Part shown: piece by piece, positions 43,309-54,144 of the stretch
How positions within the stretch are numbered: position 1 is the stretch's first letter
Layout of the letters: each line of letters starts with the position of its first letter
Origin: an uncultured Spirochaetota bacterium
GTDB lineage: Bacteria; Spirochaetota; Brevinematia; Brevinematales; JAOACQ01
Direction: 5' to 3'
Length of the DNA: 54,144 nt
Assembly (NCBI GenBank): GCA_963783575.1
Contig: CAWAOD010000008.1
Location: 1-54,144 of the forward strand
Notes under the pieces: generated by a model
Told to the model about the DNA's origin: nothing
Databases searched by the model: none
Seen by the model: only the letters and a program-made list of their open reading frames with translations
Made by a program: the position numbers and the translations under genes

Positions 43309-46134
43309 TCATTTCCGTAACTCATTTATTTTTTGTATGGTTTCGCCTAATTTCATATAAGTGTATGGTTTAAATAAAGTGCCTGAAAATCCGTATAGTT
43401 TTGGATTGGACATAACGGGGTCATCGGAGTAACCGCTTGTTGCTATCGCCCTGATGCCGGGGTTTATTTCCAATAATCTTGACAGAGCTTCCACGCCGCT
43501 CATTCCGCCCTGTATTGTGAGGTCCAGGATCACCAAATCATAAGGGAATCCGTCTGTTAGAGCTTTTTTATAGAGTTCAATGGCTTCCTTTCCGTCAGAA
43601 GCAGTGTCAGCCGTATATCCCATATTTGTCAGCATTTTTATAGTCAGATTTCGTAAAAAATCCATATCATCCATAACGAGTATCTTTCCATGTCCGCTGA
43701 ATACTACCGATGTTGATTTTTCAATACCCGGCTTTGATTTCTTAACTGCCGGCAGATAAATATAAAAGGTGGTTCCCTTTCCCACTTCAGAATCCAGATC
43801 TATAAAACCCTCATGCTTCTTAATAATGGAATATGTAGATGTAAGGCCAAGTCCGCTTCCATTTTGCTTTGTAGTAAAGAACGGGTCGTATATTTTTTTT
43901 TGATTTTCTAATGAAATACCAAAACCATTATCCTTAATTGATATTTTGACATAATTACCGGATTCGAGAGGTATATTTATTCCTGAAGTTATCACTACAT
44001 TTTCTACCTTGATATTAATAGTTCCTCCGTCAGGCATGGCCTGTTTTGCATTGATTACAATGTTGTCAATAACCTGTCCGATCTGATTCTCATCGATATC
44101 GCATGACCAGAGGTCTTCAGGAACATCAAATTCGCATTTGATATTTGTTCCGCTTAAGACAAAGAAGACATTGTCTTTGATAAATTTTGTTATGGTTAAA
44201 ATCCTTTTAACCGGCATTCCACCCTTGGAAAAAGTCAAAAGCTGATGAGTAAGGTCTTTTGCCATATTCCACACATTTAATGCATGAGAAAGCATTTCCG
44301 ATGCCTCGTCATTCGAAGTAAGATATTCCCGTGCCATTTCTATGTAACCGAAAATCCCTGTTAAAAGATTGTTGAAATCATGAGCGATGCCTCCGGCAAG
44401 CATTCCAATGGACTCGAGTTTCTGAGCATTAAAAATTTTTTCTTCAAGTCTCTTTTTATCCGTAATATCACGGAAAACAAGTACAACACCGATAATATTG
44501 TTTTTACTATCCCGGATAGGGGCTCCGCTATCTGAAATACTCATTTCCCTGCCTTCTTTGGAAATAAGAAGGGTATGGCTGGAAAGGCCGACTATTTCTC
44601 CCGTATATATAACTTTTTCAATTGGGTTCTCACTTTTTTTCCGGGTTTTTTCATTAATTATTTTGAAAACCTCAGTCAGTTGTTTTCCTTCGGATTCTGC
44701 AAGGCTCCAGCCCGTTAAATCTTCGGCCACATTGTTCATCAAAACAATTCTTCCGTTTATATCTGTGGCAATAACTCCGTCGCCTATACTTTTAAGAGTT
44801 ACAGATAACCGCTCTTTTTCAGTAGCCAGATTCTGTTCGGCAATCTTTCTCGGTTCTATATTCTCTACCATAATAATCATAAATTTCGGGTTGTTGAAAA
44901 CATCCCTGGCAAATGATCCGGTAATATGAACCCATAAAGGTTTTCCATCTTTACGGATATATCTTTTCTCAAAACGGATTATCTCAGTTCTTCCTTCAAT
45001 GATCTCTTTATATATTTTTAAATTTTCCTCTACATCATCGGGATGGGTCATTTCATCAAATGTTAATTCCATCAGTTCATTTTCAGAATAAGCTACCAGA
45101 TCCTGGAAAGTCCGGTTTGCCCGGATAAAACGCCTGGTGCCCGGATCTGTAAGCGCTATTCCCAAAGCCGAACATTCAAATATAGCCCGGAAGAGATTTT
45201 CACTCTCACGCAGAGCATTTTCAGTGAGTTTGCGCTTGGCAATATCTTCCGTAAGCTCTATATTTGTTGTTATTAACTGTTCCGTTCTTTCCCGGACGCT
45301 TTTTTCAAGCTCCAGGTTCAGCTTCTGGATTTTATTTTCACTCTGCTTTCTCTCAGAAATATCAGAAAAAACTACAACTATAAACTTTTCACCAATACTA
45401 TTGGTATAAAGATTTTTTTTAGTGAGAATGATATGTGTTTTACCGCCCGCATCGGTAAATTCCTCTTCATTGATATTTTCCTTTCCTGTATCAAAAACTA
45501 TTTCATCCTTTTCCCAGAAAATATCGGCCTGGTATTTTGGAAAGAAGTCATAATCCGATTTTCCGAGCAGCTCTTCCCTGCTGTAACCGATGAAAGTACA
45601 ATGCGCGTCGTTTGACAGCACCCATTGATGCTGACTGTCCTTAACGCAGACCGGATCAGCTATAGTATTGATTATCTTATTTAGATATTCCTTTGAATCG
45701 AAAAGGGCTTTTTCAGTTTTTACCAGCTCATTAATCTTGCTTATGGAAACTTCCTTTTCATATATCAATTCTTCCGATTGCCGCTTTATCTTATCGAGGA
45801 GTTCTTTTATTAAACCGGCAGTGTATCCAATGATAACCTGAACGATACCGAAAGGGATGCTTTTTATAAACTGATCCCAATTGAATTCTCTATTTGTGAT
45901 AAGTAAAAAAATCGTGATTATATAGAATAAAAAACCGGTAAAAGCGCCGGTTATTAAGCCGAAAAACAGGCCGGAAACCGCGATTGGTATTAAGGCAAAT
46001 AATGCCGTGAGATATCCGGCCGTTGTAAAAAACAATTGAAAAAATCCGATAAAGCAGGCCGCGATCAATAAAATAATAATAATCTTGAAGGGAATAAACG
46101 TGAAAAGTTTAAACAAGAATTGCCGGAAATTCAT
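43309..46134 (-). CDS. hybrid multi-PAS sensor kinase / response regulator
   Basis: TM region, three PAS domains, GIAHDFNNLL, FFTTK, receiver domain ILVMDD..ILDLTI. Confidence 0.93.
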   Translation of the reverse strand: MNFRQFLFKLFTFIPFKIIIILLIAACFIGFFQLFFTTAGYLTALFALIPIAVSGLFFGLITGAFTGFLFYIITIFLLITNREFNWDQFIKSIPFGIVQVIIGYTAGLIKELLDKIKRQSEELIYEKEVSISKINELVKTEKALFDSKEYLNKIINTIADPVCVKDSQHQWVLSNDAHCTFIGYSREELLGKSDYDFFPKYQADIFWEKDEIVFDTGKENINEEEFTDAGGKTHIILTKKNLYTNSIGEKFIVVVFSDISERKQSENKIQKLNLELEKSVRERTEQLITTNIELTEDIAKRKLTENALRESENLFRAIFECSALGIALTDPGTRRFIRANRTFQDLVAYSENELMELTFDEMTHPDDVEENLKIYKEIIEGRTEIIRFEKRYIRKDGKPLWVHITGSFARDVFNNPKFMIIMVENIEPRKIAEQNLATEKERLSVTLKSIGDGVIATDINGRIVLMNNVAEDLTGWSLAESEGKQLTEVFKIINEKTRKKSENPIEKVIYTGEIVGLSSHTLLISKEGREMSISDSGAPIRDSKNNIIGVVLVFRDITDKKRLEEKIFNAQKLESIGMLAGGIAHDFNNLLTGIFGYIEMAREYLTSNDEASEMLSHALNVWNMAKDLTHQLLTFSKGGMPVKRILTITKFIKDNVFFVLSGTNIKCEFDVPEDLWSCDIDENQIGQVIDNIVINAKQAMPDGGTINIKVENVVITSGINIPLESGNYVKISIKDNGFGISLENQKKIYDPFFTTKQNGSGLGLTSTYSIIKKHEGFIDLDSEVGKGTTFYIYLPAVKKSKPGIEKSTSVVFSGHGKILVMDDMDFLRNLTIKMLTNMGYTADTASDGKEAIELYKKALTDGFPYDLVILDLTIQGGMSGVEALSRLLEINPGIRAIATSGYSDDPVMSNPKLYGFSGTLFKPYTYMKLGETIQKINELRK

Positions 46135-46351
46135 AGAATTTTGTCCTCAATATTATCATTGGCAAATTCTCATGGGAAATATACTTTTCTTATACTAGGC
46201 CGCATTTAAAACGAGAGTTAACGAACTATTAAATACTTATACTGAGTTATTTATTAGTATTATTTTGATTACAACTCAGTATCAGGATTGATTTTTATGA
46301 TAAGATTCCTTTACTTTATTAATTAAAGAATATAAGGAGCTTTTAATTTTG

Positions 46352-47851
46352 TCAAATATTTTTATCTATCAGAAAACTGCAAAATATTCCTGCTATTTTA
46401 TTCAAATAATAATTTCGGGCCGTTTCAGGGTTTATATCTGAAATATTTTCCCTTGTGAAAACCTTTCGGCAAATATCAGAATCCGGGTTCTTAATTTCTC
46501 CTTCAATTGATTTCAATAACCGCGCGATCTTTGATTTTAATCCATCGATTTTTATAAAGCTATTTTTTATCATATCAGTGGATTTAATTTTATCTCTTCC
46601 TGAAAAAAGAAATTCAGGATGATCAAAAGTTAACCTTTTTATATTTTTGAAAGACCCGTCATTTCCTATGTAATAATTTCCCCCAAACATATTTTCAGCC
46701 GTTTCCTTAACCATTAAGAATTGTTTATTTGTAAAAAGACCTTCATCAAGCGGCATGATGTCTCTTCTTTTAAGAAATGAGGATAAATGGTTTAAAAGCG
46801 GGTTTAACCTGTTAATAATATTCTCCCTATAGTAGATAAGGGCATTTCCGGAGCTGTGAGAGCCATGTTTTATAGAATAGGAGAGATCAAATCCGCAGAA
46901 TATTACGGGTCCTGTTGAAAATCTATTTGCCAGTAAACCTGCGTCAATAGTCACCGAAGGAAATTTTAACTGTAAAGCAGGTCTATCAATTTCATCATTA
47001 AGGTCGTAAAATATTACAGGATTTCTAATTGAAGAAAGAAAAGCGCTGCTTGAATAAACGCTTGCAAAAACCGGAATATCAGCCGGCAAACAAAAGCCAT
47101 GAAGCTTATTGGCGGCGCCGGCATCGCTTATTACTATAAAATCAGGCTTGATACCGTAGTTAATAAGTGTTTGCGTCGCAGAAAGGACGCTGAATATTAT
47201 CATCCTGCCTTGATTCTTTTTAATGTCCGCAGCAGCGCTGTTTAATGAAGGGCCTGACGCGGCTATTACAACCGGCAGATTCAAATCTTTATTACCTAAA
47301 TAGTTTTCAATTTTATTGTCAAGAAAAAATCTATTACTTTGGTCTGAAGAAGAGGATAGATTTCTTATGAAATTAATAAACCAGACCTTTGAAAAATAGG
47401 CGCTGACCTTGAGATTTTCAACTGATGCCGCAAGCTCACTTTTGATGCGTTCAATAAAGTTCTGATAAATATCCGGATATGCTCTTTTAAAGGATTCCAG
47501 GGCAATAATAATGGGCTTTTTCCTTGAGAAAAGCTTCTTTTCGAATGCTTCGGATATGCTTGAACTTAAATGAAAAATCTTAACATCGGAATAGTTCTTT
47601 AACAAATATTCTTCTAGAATTTTATCAGGCTCAAATATAAATATATCTTCCTGAGCAACTCCCTTATTTTTCAAGGCTTCGATCTGATAGCCGAGACAGG
47701 CGCTGAATAAAATAAAGAAATGATTTTCCGGGGCAATATTATTCCTTTCAAGATTTTTATTAACATCCTCAGGATGAGAGGGGCTCAGCAGGAAGACGCC
47801 GTCTTTTTTTATGGTCTTTCCACCGTTTTTTGCCGTTATAATTTCCGTCAC
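46352..47851 (-). CDS. DUF115 / Maf (MptE-like) protein
   Basis: VVIAASGPSL, GIKPDFIVISD, FCGFDLS. Confidence 0.8.
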   Translation of the reverse strand: MTEIITAKNGGKTIKKDGVFLLSPSHPEDVNKNLERNNIAPENHFFILFSACLGYQIEALKNKGVAQEDIFIFEPDKILEEYLLKNYSDVKIFHLSSSISEAFEKKLFSRKKPIIIALESFKRAYPDIYQNFIERIKSELAASVENLKVSAYFSKVWFINFIRNLSSSSDQSNRFFLDNKIENYLGNKDLNLPVVIAASGPSLNSAAADIKKNQGRMIIFSVLSATQTLINYGIKPDFIVISDAGAANKLHGFCLPADIPVFASVYSSSAFLSSIRNPVIFYDLNDEIDRPALQLKFPSVTIDAGLLANRFSTGPVIFCGFDLSYSIKHGSHSSGNALIYYRENIINRLNPLLNHLSSFLKRRDIMPLDEGLFTNKQFLMVKETAENMFGGNYYIGNDGSFKNIKRLTFDHPEFLFSGRDKIKSTDMIKNSFIKIDGLKSKIARLLKSIEGEIKNPDSDICRKVFTRENISDINPETARNYYLNKIAGIFCSFLIDKNI

Positions 47852-47930
47852 AAAAACCTCTATAATCTTTTTTACAGGAAAAAGAAATCAAAGCCTCTTT
47901 TTGCCGCAGAGCCGCGGCAATAGTGGCTTT

Positions 47931-47966
47931 CCTACCTTCTTTCTGGACGATCAGAAAGAAGGTAGG
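47931..47966. repeat. 15-bp-stem palindrome
   Basis: CCTACCTTCTTTCTG-GACGAT-CAGAAAGAAGGTAGG. Confidence 0.7.
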
Positions 47967-48388
47967 CGAAGAAAGAATCGCCCTACGCGGTTTCCATATC
48001 GTAGATATAATATTGTAAGATGTTGCATTATCCGATTTATTGATAAATCCTCTTTTATTATTACAATAGCGTCTCACCAAAACATCCTGTTTTGATTCGG
48101 CGCTGACGCACATCCTGTGCTAACTTAATTTACAACCTCTTATTTTTAAAAAGCAGATAATGCGCTTTATTATTTAAGTATATTTGTTTCCTTTATACAA
48201 AATCACAGGAAACCGCTGCGGGGCAGGGAACGGAGCTGAAAAAGCAACAGCGCAACCTTCGCGGCTTGGTTCCTGAGCGGAGTCGAAGGGCCAGGCCGCT
48301 TTGTAACCTGTGGTGTACAAAATTTGCATCCTGGTTCAGCACCTGCCTTTTTTCATCCGCCGGGAAATTCGGCCTTCGTAAACTCGCT

Positions 48389-48423
48389 CCCCCGCTTTCT
48401 AACACAAACCAAACCACATCTAT
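48389..48423. repeat. conserved inter-gene spacer, copy A (core only)
   Basis: CCCCCGCTTTCTAACACAAACCAAACCACATCTAT matches copies B and C. Confidence 0.8.
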
Positions 48424-48487
48424 TATGCTAACCCCCTCGGGCTATTTTATGACAGACTTGACTGTTATGCGATGCGGACGGCCAAAT

Positions 48488-48790
48488 TTAAGCCAGTTCT
48501 AATTCTTTAATGTTATGAATTGACTCAAGAATCTTCTTGATTTCAATTTTTTCTTCTCTTAAATCATATTCCATTTGTAATCCAAGCCAGAATTCAGCAG
48601 AATTACCAAAAAATTTTGATAATCTTAAAGCTGTATCCGGTGATATTCTTCTTCTAAACTTGAGAATTTCTGCAATTCTAGTGACAGGCATATGAGTCTC
48701 TTTTGCAAGTCTATATGCAGTAATATGAAAAGGTTTTAAAAACTCTTCGTCTAAGATTTCACCAGGGTGGATATTCGGTAATTTATTCAT
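48488..48790 (-). CDS. higA: HigA family antitoxin
   Basis: IHPGEILDEEFL, TALRLSKFFGNSAEFWLGLQ. Confidence 0.93.
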   Translation of the reverse strand: MNKLPNIHPGEILDEEFLKPFHITAYRLAKETHMPVTRIAEILKFRRRISPDTALRLSKFFGNSAEFWLGLQMEYDLREEKIEIKKILESIHNIKELELA

Positions 48791-48802
48791 AATAAACCTC
48801 TT

Positions 48803-48946
48803 TTAATGATAATCTGCTATTTCAACATCATGAGCATTGTTTTCTATCCAACGAAAACAAATTCTCCATTGGTCATTTATTCTAATGCTAAATTGTCCTT
48901 GTTTATTCTTTTTTAATTTTTCAAGTTTATTCGCCCGGCTACTCAT
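48803..48946 (-). pseudogene. higB: 5'-truncated HigB/RelE toxin (C-terminal 47 aa)
   Basis: Hand translation MSSRANKLEKLKKNKQGQFSIRINDQWRICFRW..DVEIADYH; N-terminal half absent. Confidence 0.85.
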
Positions 48947-49063
48947 ATCCAATCTTCGTTAAACATTTAATTTTGTCATTTAAAGCAAAGCAATCGATTT
49001 CATCCACCTTGCTCCATCCATCCTTCCACCCCCGCTTTCTCATTCAAACCAAACCACGTCTAT
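48945..49063. repeat. conserved inter-gene spacer, copy B
   Basis: ATATCCAA..TCGTTAAACATT..TCATT..AAGCAA..CGATTTC plus CTTTCTCATTCAAACCAAACCAC, collinear with copy C. Confidence 0.85.
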
Positions 49064-49085
49064 CCTGCCAATTACAGAAAAAGAA

Positions 49086-49101
49086 CCGCCCGGAAGGGCG
49101 G
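49086..49101 (-). terminator. possible intrinsic terminator
   Basis: CCGCCC-GGAA-GGGCGG with a minus-strand U-rich tail. Confidence 0.5.
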
Positions 49102-49327
49102 GTTACTTATTAAAGTAATGTTCGGATACACATTCCGGTGTTCTCTCAATCGGGCAAAACTCGGCCTCCTGCCTTCGGTAGCAAGAATTGGAAACGTTAA
49201 ACTAATTTCCCAGGGTAGTTACAAACAGAATTCCCATGGCCGCCACAAATAGAAATCCCATACCTGTCACAAGAGTATTTCCCATAGTGGGAAATAAGGT
49301 TTACCTTTAATGAAAATACATTAAAGG

Positions 49328-50875
49328 ATGGCAGGAATGGTGAACAATATTATGTACCAGGAAATAAAAAAGTTGAAACTTTTGGGACGAAGTAAGAATC
49401 AGGTATCCCGGGAACTAATGATTGACATTAAAACGGTGCGGAAGTATTGGGGAATGAACGATCAGGAATACCAGAAAAGCCTGAATGAGTTTTCATACCG
49501 GGAAAAAGAATTTGACAGGTTAAAGAAAGATATTTTGGAAGTGTATGAAAAGAATGATTTCATCCACTTGAATGTATCATCGGTTCATGATTATCTTCTG
49601 GAAATAAAAGGAGAACTACCGGCGAACGAGAACACATTGAGAAATTTCGTGAACTATCTGATCGAAACCAGACAGCTCATACTCAATGGGAGGCAGCGGT
49701 ATTACACAAAAGTATCGGAACTGCCTTACGGAAGGCAGCTGCAGCTTGATTTCGGGCAATATACCGACCGATATGGAAGGAAATATTACATTTTTGCCGC
49801 GGTACTGTCAGCCAGCCGGTATAAATACGCGGCGCTACAAGAAGGGCCGTTCCGGACAGAAGATTTGATCGGCCATCTTCTGGATTGTTTCGGATATCTG
49901 GGAGGAATACCGGAGGAACTCGTCATCGACCAGGATTGTACGATGGTGGTAAGCGAGAACTCCGGGGATATAATTTACACGAAAGACTTTCAGTATTTCA
50001 TCGAAGAGATGGATTTAAAGATGTATGTTTGTCGCGGTGCAGACCCGGAAAGCAAAGGTAAAATTGAGAATGTAGTTAAATTCATCAAGTATAGTTTCTT
50101 TCCGGTAAGGGAATTTAACAGCATAGTGGAAGCAAGTGAAAGCCTGATGAAATGGCTGAAAAGGAAAGCCAATGGGAAGATTTCCCAGGCAACGATGAAA
50201 ATCCCGCTGATCGAGATAGAAACGGAAAGATTATCCTTGAGACCGCTCCGGAATTCGATATTTCGTAAAGACAGGATCGGCGCCAGGGAAGAACGAAGTG
50301 TAAGCGATAAATGCCGGATAGCGGTGGATACAAGCCAATATGATGTGCCGGAGATATACCGGAACGGTTCGGTGGATATTTACAAAACGGGAGATAAACT
50401 CTTTGTCTTTGACCGTCACAGCGGCCTGGAAATCGCAAAATACCCATTATCAGCGATTCCGGGACAGATCATCAGCAACCGGACAATGATCCGGGAAATG
50501 GGAACGACGGTTCAGAAGCTGAAGGATGAAGTAAGTGAATACTTTGAAATACCGGATTGGAAAGTATTTCTGGAAATAAATTTCAAACAGTTTCCACGAT
50601 ATGTCCGGGACCAGTGTCTTGCCGGGAGGAAATATTTTAAAGGGCAGGAAATCGATAGGGAAAAACTGGTTCAAGCTCTGAAAACGTGCATAGAAATTGG
50701 AAGTTATTCGATGAAGGATTTATGGGATAATTACCGGAATCAATTAAATATGGACCGGGATGAAATTCCATTAAAGATAGAGAAAATCATTAACCCGAGG
50801 CACGTTCTGGAAGTAGAAAAACCGGATATGGGAATGTACCGGAGCCTCTTTAAAACAATGGGGGGCCGGCAATGA
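49328..50875 (+). CDS. istA: IS21 transposase
   Basis: N-terminal HTH, QLDFG, VIDQD, ESKGKIENVV. Confidence 0.95.
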   Translation: MAGMVNNIMYQEIKKLKLLGRSKNQVSRELMIDIKTVRKYWGMNDQEYQKSLNEFSYREKEFDRLKKDILEVYEKNDFIHLNVSSVHDYLLEIKGELPANENTLRNFVNYLIETRQLILNGRQRYYTKVSELPYGRQLQLDFGQYTDRYGRKYYIFAAVLSASRYKYAALQEGPFRTEDLIGHLLDCFGYLGGIPEELVIDQDCTMVVSENSGDIIYTKDFQYFIEEMDLKMYVCRGADPESKGKIENVVKFIKYSFFPVREFNSIVEASESLMKWLKRKANGKISQATMKIPLIEIETERLSLRPLRNSIFRKDRIGAREERSVSDKCRIAVDTSQYDVPEIYRNGSVDIYKTGDKLFVFDRHSGLEIAKYPLSAIPGQIISNRTMIREMGTTVQKLKDEVSEYFEIPDWKVFLEINFKQFPRYVRDQCLAGRKYFKGQEIDREKLVQALKTCIEIGSYSMKDLWDNYRNQLNMDRDEIPLKIEKIINPRHVLEVEKPDMGMYRSLFKTMGGRQ

Positions 50876-51609
50876 TTAAAATTGTTTCACAACTGACGAC
50901 TCTTGGTCTCAAAGGGATGATTAAACGCCTTGATGAGGAACTCAGTGAAGCGGAAAAGTCGAAAGAATCCTATACCGGGTTTTTGGAAAGGCTGCTTGCA
51001 TCGGAATTGAATTATCGGGTGGATAAACGGTTCCAGAGGAATATGGCAGGAGCGCATTTCCCAGTCCGTAAGAATATCGATGCTTTTGAGTTCGGGAAAG
51101 TGAAAGGAATTTCTAAAAAGGAGATATCGGAGCTTCTGGATTTCCGGTGGTTGGATAATCATCATAATGTTTTGTTATTTGGCCCTCCAGGCCTTGGAAA
51201 AACGCATCTGGCGATAGGAATCGGAGTTAAAGCTGTCGAAAAGGGTTATATTGTGTGTTTTGAGCGGATGACTACACTGATAAAACTCTTGAAGACAGCA
51301 GATATCCAGAGAAGTTCTGTTTTCCGCCTGAATCGGATGATGAAAGCCGATCTTATCATCATCGATGAAATCGGTTATACACCGATTGAAAAGAAGGAGG
51401 CAAACCTGTTCTTTAACCTGGTGAGTGAAATGTATGAAAAGACATCGATATTGATTACATCGAATAAAGGATTTCAGGACTGGGCTGAAATGATGGGAGA
51501 TCCGATTATGACAACCGCTCTTCTCGACAGGCTATTACATCATTCCAGTATATTCAATCTGATTGGAGAATCTTACAGAATACAAAATTTAAAGAAGGAG
51601 GTTCAGTAG
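50872..51609 (+). CDS. istB: IS21 helper ATPase
   Basis: GPPGLGKTHLA, IIDEIGY, ALLDRLLHH, GESYR; overlaps the istA stop. Confidence 0.96.
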   Translation: MIKIVSQLTTLGLKGMIKRLDEELSEAEKSKESYTGFLERLLASELNYRVDKRFQRNMAGAHFPVRKNIDAFEFGKVKGISKKEISELLDFRWLDNHHNVLLFGPPGLGKTHLAIGIGVKAVEKGYIVCFERMTTLIKLLKTADIQRSSVFRLNRMMKADLIIIDEIGYTPIEKKEANLFFNLVSEMYEKTSILITSNKGFQDWAEMMGDPIMTTALLDRLLHHSSIFNLIGESYRIQNLKKEVQ

Positions 51610-52276
51610 CCAATTTCTGCCTACCCCCTGGGAAATACTACCGGTATGGGTATGGGAAAAACTCTTGTGATGGATATGGGAATTACCCTTGTGACAGGGG
51701 TGGGAAATTACCTTGTGACGGCTATGGGAAAAATCCTTGATTTTTCCAAGAATCGAACATTGATTTTTTCCGACCCTCAAGCGGGCACCCCGTCAAAAAT
51801 CAATGTTCTCAATGGTAAAAGCAACACTTTGCCCTCTGCGCCTGCCCTCGTAGCAGGCTTAGCGTAGCGGGGAGGAAACACCGGAATGTGTATCATAGCT
51901 TAATATTTTAATAAGTCTTGTTAAAAAGAACAGCCGGAAGAAAAATATTTGAATATTATTATTTATTATTTGTTTCTTTATACCAAATAGTTTTTCTTAA
52001 GTTATTTGTAGCGCCAATCATTTTATAATTATGAATATAGATAATTTTATTTGTTAGATAAATTATTTTATCCAAATAATTTACATTTGTTGTTTGATTT
52101 TTATCCTCATTTATAAAATTTTCATTTTCATTAATATAAACAAATTTATAAAAATAAGTTGTTATATTTCCACCTGGGAAAGGACCATCGATAATTTTAT
52201 TATTATCAATTTTTAAAATCCATAATTCATTATTAAATTGTAAATACCAATCAGAATAAATCTTTTCAAGTAATTC

Positions 52277-53839
52277 GGGTTTGCTGAAAAACTCCCAATT
52301 GGTTGAAATATAATGAAATATTTTAGATTTTACCTTAAAATAATGCAAGGAAAAAGTGGGAAAGCCAATAAAAACCTTGCATTTTGAGGTGAAAAATGTA
52401 CGACAGAGAAAATAAGGAAGAATGTAAGTTCGTAAACTTTTATCAGCCATTTGGCGGTAAGATGAATACCGGCAACCGATGGATAAAAATGGCGGATTTG
52501 ATACCCTGGGATATACTTGAAGAAAAATATGCGAGTCAATTCAAAGCCATCGGGCGAGGTGCAAAGAAAGTAAGGATGGCGGTTGGAGCGTTAATCATCC
52601 AGCAGCGGTTTGGCTTTACCGATGAGGAGACCGTAGCGCAGATTATTGAAAACCCGTATTATCAATATTTCATTGGCTTGAATGAATATCAGGGAAAGCA
52701 GCCGTTTGATTCTACAATGATGGTATATTTTAGGAAACGAGTAAAACCTGAAATGCTGGAAGAAGTGAATAATGCCCTGTTTGCTGAAAAGAAAGAAAAA
52801 AAGAAAAAGAAAAAAGGCAACGACGATGATGATGACCATGAACCGAAAAACAAAGGGAAGCTGTTGATGGACGCGACCTGTGTCCCCGCAGACATCAAGT
52901 TTCCGACAGACTTGAATTTATTGAATGACGCGCGGATGAAACTGGAACAGATGATTGACGAAGGTTATGCAAAGGGGAAATTTTGGCCAGTCAAACCAAG
53001 GACATATCCCCGAAAGGCCCGGAAAGATTATTTATTGGCAGCAAAGAACAAGAAATTAAGCGAGCAGAAGCTGAGGCAAGCGCTACGGAAACAGTTGAAT
53101 TATGTAAGCCGAGACCTAAGATATCTGGAAAAGATACATCCTACGGAATTGTCGGTAACACAATACGCAAGGTTGATTATCATCAAAAGACTTTACGAAC
53201 AGCAGAAAGAGATGTTTGAAACGGGAAAACACAGTATTTCAGGAAGAATAGTGAGCATATCACAGCCGCATGTCAGGCCGATAGTGAGAGGTAAAGCTGG
53301 AGCCAAAGTGGAGTTTGGAGCGAAAGTATCAATCAGTCTGGTGAATGGATATGCGTTTACAGATAAAATCAGTTGGGAAAACTTCAACGAAGGAACGATA
53401 TTGCAGGAACAGGTGGAAAAATACCGGAAACGGTTTGGATATTATCCAAAAGCGGTTATAGTGGATAAGATATACCGGACAAGGGCAAATCAGAAATATT
53501 GCAGGGGAAAAGGAATCAGATTAAGCGGGCCGCCATTGGGAAGGCCGAAGATTGACCTGAAGGAAAGGGAAAAAGTAAAAGCTCAGGAACGGAAAGATAT
53601 ATCGATCCGGAACGCGGTGGAAGGAGAATTTGGTACCGGGAAAAGGAAATACGGTTTAAGCCTGATAATGACAAAGCTTACAAACACGAGTGAATCGGTG
53701 ATAGCTGTGAATTTCTTTTTGTTAAACATCGAAAAGAAGCTTCGGCTTCTTTTGCGCCAAATTTTTATCCAGATATTTTTTTGGAGAAAAAGCAGCTTTG
53801 CCTGTGCGTAGAGTTGAACTTGCGTTTTTCAGCAAACCC
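52277..53839 (+). mobile_element. complete IS5-family insertion sequence (1563 bp)
   Basis: 16-bp perfect TIR GGGTTTGCTGAAAAAC; TAATTC on both flanks. Confidence 0.93.
52396..53811 (+). CDS. IS5 family DDE transposase
   Basis: ENPYYQYFIG, LLMDATCVPADIKFPTD, VEFGAK, VDKIY, RNAVEGEFG. Confidence 0.95.
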   Translation: MYDRENKEECKFVNFYQPFGGKMNTGNRWIKMADLIPWDILEEKYASQFKAIGRGAKKVRMAVGALIIQQRFGFTDEETVAQIIENPYYQYFIGLNEYQGKQPFDSTMMVYFRKRVKPEMLEEVNNALFAEKKEKKKKKKGNDDDDDHEPKNKGKLLMDATCVPADIKFPTDLNLLNDARMKLEQMIDEGYAKGKFWPVKPRTYPRKARKDYLLAAKNKKLSEQKLRQALRKQLNYVSRDLRYLEKIHPTELSVTQYARLIIIKRLYEQQKEMFETGKHSISGRIVSISQPHVRPIVRGKAGAKVEFGAKVSISLVNGYAFTDKISWENFNEGTILQEQVEKYRKRFGYYPKAVIVDKIYRTRANQKYCRGKGIRLSGPPLGRPKIDLKEREKVKAQERKDISIRNAVEGEFGTGKRKYGLSLIMTKLTNTSESVIAVNFFLLNIEKKLRLLLRQIFIQIFFWRKSSFACA

Positions 53840-54004
53840 TAATTCGTTTTTTTGCATTGAAATACATATATTAATAATGAAAAAACAGATACAAAAAGAT
53901 ATTAAGCCTAATTTCATTTTAACTTCCCTTTTAAAATTGGATTGGCCACCAGTTTTGTAATCTTGTAATATACGAACTTCGTCAACCACCCTAAATTTCA
54001 GGTA

Positions 54005-54100
54005 ATATCCAAACCTCGTTAAACATTCCATTTTTTCATTAAAAGCAAGACGAGCGATTTCCCCTACCCTACTTTCTCATTCAAACCAAACCACCACGTC
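54005..54100. repeat. conserved inter-gene spacer, copy C
   Basis: Collinear with 48945-49063 apart from a shorter central C-rich tract. Confidence 0.85.
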
Positions 54101-54144
54101 AATAAATGGCTTTTTCTACATTCTCGGTTGTACGATGTGGACTC

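Follow-up and report, generated by a model that had tools for sequence, protein, structure and literature searches.

We analysed a 54,144-nt stretch of DNA from an uncultured Spirochaetota bacterium (the window), which constitutes the whole of contig C8 in a source genome (G000) of 4.9 Mb and 18 contigs, the end of the window being the end of the contig. A 23-nt core occurs in it three times in a single orientation, at 48395-48417, 49035-49057 and 54072-54094 (copies A, B and C), and copies B and C share a further 57 nt at 82% identity (48945-49001 and 54005-54061), both as described in an earlier sequence-only reading. When up to four mismatches were allowed, the core had three matches in the window compared with one in total over 20 shuffled windows. 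That reading had regarded the repeats as novel, working recombination sites at the end of a gene-cassette array. We consider it probable that the window is the decayed end of an integron-like cassette array, and that its repeats are eroded junctions of known parts. On the minus strand, starting at the contig edge, the order is an R''-type end, copy C, a gene of 129 aa split by an IS5-family insertion sequence (IS), a palindrome split by an IS21-family element, copy B, the second half of higB, an intact higA, a second R''-type end, copy A, and dispersed non-coding repeats.

Both R''-type boxes lie on the minus strand. The one at 54127..54142 is likely the 3' end of a cassette beyond the contig edge and is like R''-type ends on contigs C4, C5 and C9, and the one at 48464..48479, about 17 nt downstream of the higA stop, is likely the 3' end of the higBA cassette and lacks both a partner R' and a hairpin behind it. 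A box ending in AAC follows the gene at A (48464-48470) and C (54127-54133) and is absent at B. Both 16-nt flanks had been recognised in the sequence-only reading, the first of them rightly just past the higA stop, and the position given for the second was correct, but that of the first (48463-48478) was one nucleotide off. The antitoxin gene higA (48488..48790, minus strand, 100 aa) is intact and scores over the TIGR02607 cut-off. Of higB only the 3' half is left (48803..48940, minus strand; PF05015 positions 46-91 of 91), the 5' half being replaced by copy B. The 129-aa gene, also on the minus strand, is divided by the IS5 element into a hydrophobic 5' piece of 26 codons (53840..53917) and a 3' piece of 103 codons (51959..52270); its cassette end is not recognisable, it had no Pfam match, and its ESM Atlas matches were all under 0.9. 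The cores thus bracket higBA and the 129-aa gene at the positions first reported, but not as intact genes.

The IS21-family element (49189..51748, plus strand; istA 49328-50875, istB 50872-51609; 5-bp target duplication) and the IS5-family element (52277..53839, plus strand; transposase 52396-53811, NF033578 over cut-off; 16-bp inverted ends and 6-bp target duplication) make up about 4.1 kb of the 5.8-kb stretch bounded by the repeats. The palindrome interrupted by IS21 (left part 49125..49188, right part 51749..51894) is a non-coding element of about 205 nt and not an attC; with IS21 left out it folds at z -6.8, and an uninterrupted relative is present in the sister genome G001, which is 57% complete (L039:5904-6223). 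A terminator-like hairpin at 49086..49101 belongs to a mosaic of dispersed non-coding DNA that G001 shares. A dispersed repeat of non-coding DNA, about 320 nt long, lies at 47898-48330; C3, C10, C16 and C9 carry long copies of it, and shorter copies occur at other places.

In other spirochaetes, a complete attC follows the higA homologue at five of the nine loci listed, and an R''-like box with a partial arm at the remaining four, both judged by eye. Spirochaete higBA homologues that precede attC sites and the integron-like locus of this genome (see below) uphold the proposal that the window is the end of a gene-cassette array; the same locus, the arrays of the genome and the attC sites after higA homologues make it likely that the flanks were rightly taken for R''-type cassette ends. 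We also observed a close higBA homologue outside any cassette in a further spirochaete genome (L171, G006:C1:956430), in which higB is truncated at almost the position seen in the window.

By fold and partner tests, copies A, B and C are not attC sites. Folding of both strands gave no hairpin for any copy (z -1.1 to +1.4, compared with -3.2 to -7.1 for five attC sites of the genome), and no partner R' (GTT) with a complementary outer stem was found above control within about 300 nt of each R'': the best arm scores were 4.0 for A and 4.5 for C, compared with 6.5-8.5 for four attC sites on C5 and a control median of 4.0. The crossover triplet is GAT at C, GTA at B and missing at A, and GTT is present in none of the three copies. 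With no fold, no partner R' and no GTT, the repeats are therefore not a new kind of site, and the presence of a core copy away from cassettes in G001 likewise goes against novel working recombination sites. The lack of a partner R' and of an integrase in the window, noted in the sequence-only reading, was confirmed by the control-level arm scores and by the absence of PF00589 from the contig: none of the 15 matches to this tyrosine recombinase profile in the genome falls on C8, and a profile search with TIGR02249 also had no match there. The large open reading frames (ORFs) around the repeats are IS21, IS5 and MptE-like, with no reverse transcriptase among them. An Rfam scan of 46000-54144 gave nothing at E <= 1 and no intron RNA domains, and a promoter scan returned 15 sites compared with 16.7 expected, none of which coincides with a repeat. 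The core was also considered as a protein remnant (transposase, integrase or HigB), a candidate that was dropped, as the reading frames hold stops and disagree between copies.

The genome carries an integron-like locus on contig C5, which by function is like an integron yet lacks the IntI signature described in PMC4889954. Its integrase-like gene (G000:C5:457153-458175) points toward attI and the cassette array and is in three pieces. About 41 positions of the IntI profile are missing from it, profile positions 175-232 being covered by just 17 codons, and its TIGR02249 score is under the cut-off. Whole genes with the same gap in the IntI profile are found in G011, another spirochaete genome, which has four such genes, including G011:C6:427159-427956 and two near-identical copies. 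The three C5 cassettes tested have ends complementary over 18-19 of 20 nt, and the attC sites measure 160-250 nt, five of six folding at z -3.2 to -7.1; the sixth site of this type carries the relic of a miniature inverted-repeat transposable element (MITE) and folds at z -1.4. The locus thus has the integrase gene, attI, cassettes with complementary ends and folding attC sites of an integron, and lacks the IntI-specific insertion of about 35 residues. We collected ten attI-type array heads, several of them behind a near-consensus sigma-70 promoter; nine have no adjoining integrase (C5:114986, C5:358991, C9:382277, C9:129782, C4:7100, C4:26899, C16:120165, C13:218533 and C13:202546). An attI matrix was built from array heads, and a held-out head on C13 scored 18.6 with it.

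About nine related, successive spacers lie behind different genes at C13:202500-216250 and C12:23300-25200, and their state of preservation is better than that of the repeats in the window. In seven of these spacers an R'' is followed by some 60 nt from the end of an IS, then a G-rich piece and finally a short end, and none of the seven forms a hairpin (z -1.6 to +0.5). The attI matrix was significant at six of eight spacer ends, GTT is kept at three of 11, lengths range from 125 to 289 nt, and the copies diverge freely. The join of IS stub and array-head piece falls in a short T-rich stretch common to both. Two cassettes behind hairpin-less C13 spacers retain complementary ends (17/20 and 16/20) and were therefore integrated there. 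The middle part of a C12 spacer, searched for in 35 genomes of the order, matched only its own genome, and no intact parent attC for this part was found among them.

Copy C (54005..54094, minus strand), composed of the core and the piece in common with B, has the layout of these spacers, and it ends in an attI-like site (53960..53983, minus strand) with a matrix score of 14.5 (p ~5e-4) and the crossover triplet GAT in place of GTT. Copy B (48940..49082, minus strand) combines the core with the 57-nt piece, which resembles the leader/attI end of a C13 array head. Pairwise likeness reached z 6.3 for B and the C13 array head, z 10 for B and a C13 spacer, and z 8.8-10.5 for the B/C piece and the attI end of a C13 spacer. 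Copy A (48350..48431, minus strand) has a G-rich core and a degenerate attI-like tail without GTT, and is 87% identical over 84 nt to the copy in G001. The core matches one of the C13 spacers, its one further copy in the genome (C13:208408-208448, 88% over 41 nt) lying inside a spacer between two cassettes, and all four core copies of this genome sit at cassette junctions. The one core copy of G001 joins the left flank of B to the right flank of A, between an IS3 element and a hairpin repeat; different genes surround it, and the MptE-like neighbour was not found in that partially complete genome. Copy B, searched as DNA against 61 genomes, had one real match outside its own genome, in G001, and three short matches at chance level; a metagenome scan for the core pattern gave no matches. 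The flank of copy C had no match on any other contig of the genome, and contigs from sequencing runs (best share 0.14, with no RNA data set among those listed) reached neither the repeats nor the contig edge.

Copy C likely starts with the scar of an IS1182-family transposon. One base past the R'' AAC, 25 nt (54101..54125, minus strand) match the right end of the IS1182 element of G001 at 22 positions and are the likely relic of such an end, the only one that survives at this copy. At up to five mismatches this relic had three matches in the genome, all beside AAC/GTT. A match to an IS fragment, named beforehand as an outcome that would speak against recombination sites, was thus found, though in that copy alone. 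Separately, the 14 nt at 53994-54007 are identical to a subterminal stretch of the IS1182 right end, but they run opposite to the relic.

A full, intact element of this family is present at G000:C16:116046-117527. It has 17-nt terminal inverted repeats, AAC on both sides (a 3-bp duplication), and a transposase of 494 aa, which we take to be a DDE transposase and which scored 278.6 bits with NF033551 (cut-off 270), its only match, with none of the IS110/IS1111 type. About 20 further IS1182 ends are found on C4, C5, C9, C10, C12 and C13. AAC adjoins 21 of 23 right ends and all nine left ends in this genome, compared with a background of 0.015 per site and with none of ten IS5 ends used as a control. 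At many attC sites of this genome the element sits directly after the R'' AAC, duplicating the triplet. A MITE of 109 bp with the same ends was observed at the R'' of the first attC of its array, with AAC on both sides (G000:C16:118829-118937), and a relic of it at C9:534235.

This preference extends across phyla, the IS1182 clade occupying the AAC/GTT of attC R' or R'' with a 3-bp duplication. At 13 loci in five other spirochaete genomes (45-88% identity), the triplet is at the junction in 12; an attC hairpin adjoins in seven, as judged by eye, one copy is intragenic at an AAC, and one locus is incomplete. In Pseudoalteromonas piscicida (NZ_CP074588), a 36%-identical copy lies on the triplet of an attC R' box, and two more Alteromonadales copies have GTT at the single visible end. 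The loci examined were L067-L086 and L090-L169. A scan of metagenomes gave 574 confirmed relatives, from 12 of the 64 parts of the collection. Among the best 80 of these 574, which were the ones analysed, both ends were present in 56, with GTT on both sides in 49, AAC on both sides in one, and other sequences in six. An attC outer stem scoring at least 7 lies beside the insertion at 19 of 35 testable sites, compared with 48 of 296 other GTT sites of the same loci (p = 3e-7, counted with wobble pairs and matched controls, among related elements that are not independent); this comparison supersedes an earlier one without wobble pairs, in which 13 of 41 sites passed. Judged by the direction of the neighbouring ORF at 25 sites, the box hit was R' in eight, R'' in nine and undecided in eight. 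Seven of 11 rows without GTT fell in one branch of a quick tree, which is not a clade test and whose automatic labels were wrong for at least three rows (L110, L117 and L137, which have AAC/GTT ends); the branch with most of these rows suggests a sister group with other targets. Taken together, it is very probable that this clade targets attC core triplets. Two copies (L125 from the metagenomes and L080 in G011) were seen inserted immediately next to an end of a second element of this kind, forming a stack at the triplet that is regenerated there.

The locus may then be explained as follows. An IS1182 element would have landed on the R'' of an attC, and deletions would have removed the IS body together with the attC hairpin and left the stub joined to a copied leader/attI of an array head. 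Cassettes may have integrated at the attI-like ends, which later would have lost GTT and become fixed. Copies A and B would be further worn versions of the same kind of junction, a deletion beside B would have removed the 5' half of higB, and the insertions of IS21 and IS5 would be later events. The hybrid spacers could have multiplied behind many genes by recombination between IS stubs or by attI-mediated copying; attI x attI recombination is documented but rare, at a frequency three to four orders of magnitude lower (PMC4792948).

Several results weigh against this explanation. Only copy C carries an IS end, A and B being tied to the spacer family by pairwise likeness and one C13 copy, and the attI matrix was not significant on either of them (p ~0.25-0.3). 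Four of the sites in that matrix are identical, and the attC matrix used as its contrast comprises three sequences. A profile from six C12/C13 spacers did not find copies A, B or C at E <= 10, and a search for deletion intermediates of the locus yielded none. The ends of a third cassette, also behind a C13 spacer, are complementary at only 5/20 positions, ungapped, and the higA homologue nearest in sequence, in G006 (79% DNA identity), lies outside any cassette. Finally, the core copy of G001 has no cassette nearby and would also fit a dispersed repeat unrelated to integrons.

A further-reaching version of the same history is a hairpin-free system, in which IS1182 insertion on R'' and collapse onto array heads would leave cassettes bounded by attI sites; we consider this rather unlikely. 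Its second part, that the insertion-less integrase would excise and re-insert such cassettes as double-stranded DNA, with the window as the decayed state and the GTT-bearing C13 spacers still live, appears doubtful to the same degree. A related idea is that the spacers are working, or recently working, attI-type sites, the cassettes being mobilised through recombination of attI with attC or with another attI, without a hairpin of their own. The layout does recur about nine times on C12 and C13 behind different genes, two C13 spacers retain GTT with attI scores of 18.6 and 20.7, two of the cassettes that follow these spacers still have complementary ends, and recombination between attI sites is on record (PMC4792948). 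However, GTT is lost at eight of 11 spacer ends and in all three window copies, spacers of 125 to 289 nt diverge freely from one another, the sole integrase-like gene adjoining attI is in three pieces, and the cargo of the window is broken, which makes working sites unlikely.

The core could alternatively be a module of a genus-wide, dispersed non-coding mosaic that is unrelated to integrons and found with cassette ends as junk gathers there. The G001 copy, a single B-left/core/A-right unit between IS3 and a hairpin repeat, is consistent with such a mosaic, as are the recurrence of other non-coding modules of the window in both genomes and the failure of A and B in the attI test. All four core copies of the source genome at cassette junctions, the likeness of the B/C piece to the attI end of the C13 spacer (z 8.8-10.5) and to the C13 array head, and the significant attI-like site that ends copy C argue in the other direction, and we regard this origin as improbable. 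That the repeats are a new family of non-canonical attC-type sites served by an unseen recombinase, as three same-orientation copies between small genes, two of them beside R''-like boxes, and a genome integrase without the IntI-specific insertion might make conceivable, is very improbable, as there is no fold and no R' partner, the intact sites of the genome are ordinary long hairpins, and the core was present in one of 60 other genomes and absent from the metagenome pattern scan.

The preferred reading, a decayed array end, places the locus close to several known systems. A CALIN is a cluster of attC sites lacking an integrase, with at least two attC by definition (PMC4889954). Similarly, the window has cassette-type genes and ends far from an integrase, is broken by IS elements, and has an integron-like locus elsewhere in the genome, but it contains no intact attC by the fold and partner tests, does not reach the two attC sites of the definition, and has junctions that end attI-like. 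As in the reverse integrons of Treponema, the C5 integrase is transcribed toward attI and the cassettes (PMC3607928); unlike them, it lacks about 41 IntI positions, its attC sites are 160-250 nt long, and attI is found at about ten heads rather than one. The repeats of the window are direct, whereas pdif/Xer modules have 28-bp XerC-spacer-XerD sites in alternating orientation, a comparison made by eye with the consensus.

With regard to the transposon, IS1111-attC elements are likewise insertion sequences at attC sites in many bacteria. IS1111 has a DEDD transposase and is RNA-guided (PMC11187229), whereas the element described here belongs to the IS1182 family (NF033551), sits on the AAC/GTT of either R box, and duplicates the triplet. 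Group IIC-attC introns insert at the attC edge and separate the cassette gene from its hairpin (PMC8876359, PMC7923331), and the IS1182 element parts gene and hairpin in the same way. In contrast to these introns, it is a DNA transposon with terminal inverted repeats, a 3-bp duplication and no reverse transcriptase. Within its own family, IS1272 is a hairpin-targeting member that replaces inverted repeats with no target duplication (PMC5678879). The clade described here shares with it the transposase family and a target beside an inverted-repeat structure, but produces a fixed duplication, GTT, at the base of the attC stem.

In the literature, the attC invaders named are IS1111-attC elements and group II introns (PMC3971601, PMC12444791, PMC9229058, PMC8876359, PMC7923331, in the parts consulted). 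The consulted parts of PMC9137128, PMC13656550, PMC11389934 and PMC8618304 hold nothing on IS1182 at attC, and no description was found in the literature searched, with ISfinder, TnCentral, supplements and the original IS1111-attC papers outside that search. The locus itself is a case of ordinary decay, the eroded remains of a system of known type. Worth more than the locus is a widespread IS1182 clade on GTT/AAC at either attC end, from spirochaetes to Gammaproteobacteria. A classical DDE transposase at attC would be a further independent solution, with no obvious guide RNA, and it raises the question of whether the IS1182 transposase reads the triplet, the folded single strand, or the bound integrase. 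The duplication together with the IS end rebuilds an R box; insertion may therefore leave the attC usable, and the IS may travel inside a cassette. Finally, IS1182 insertion followed by collapse would be one way for arrays to shed their hairpins and go unnoticed by attC-based annotation.

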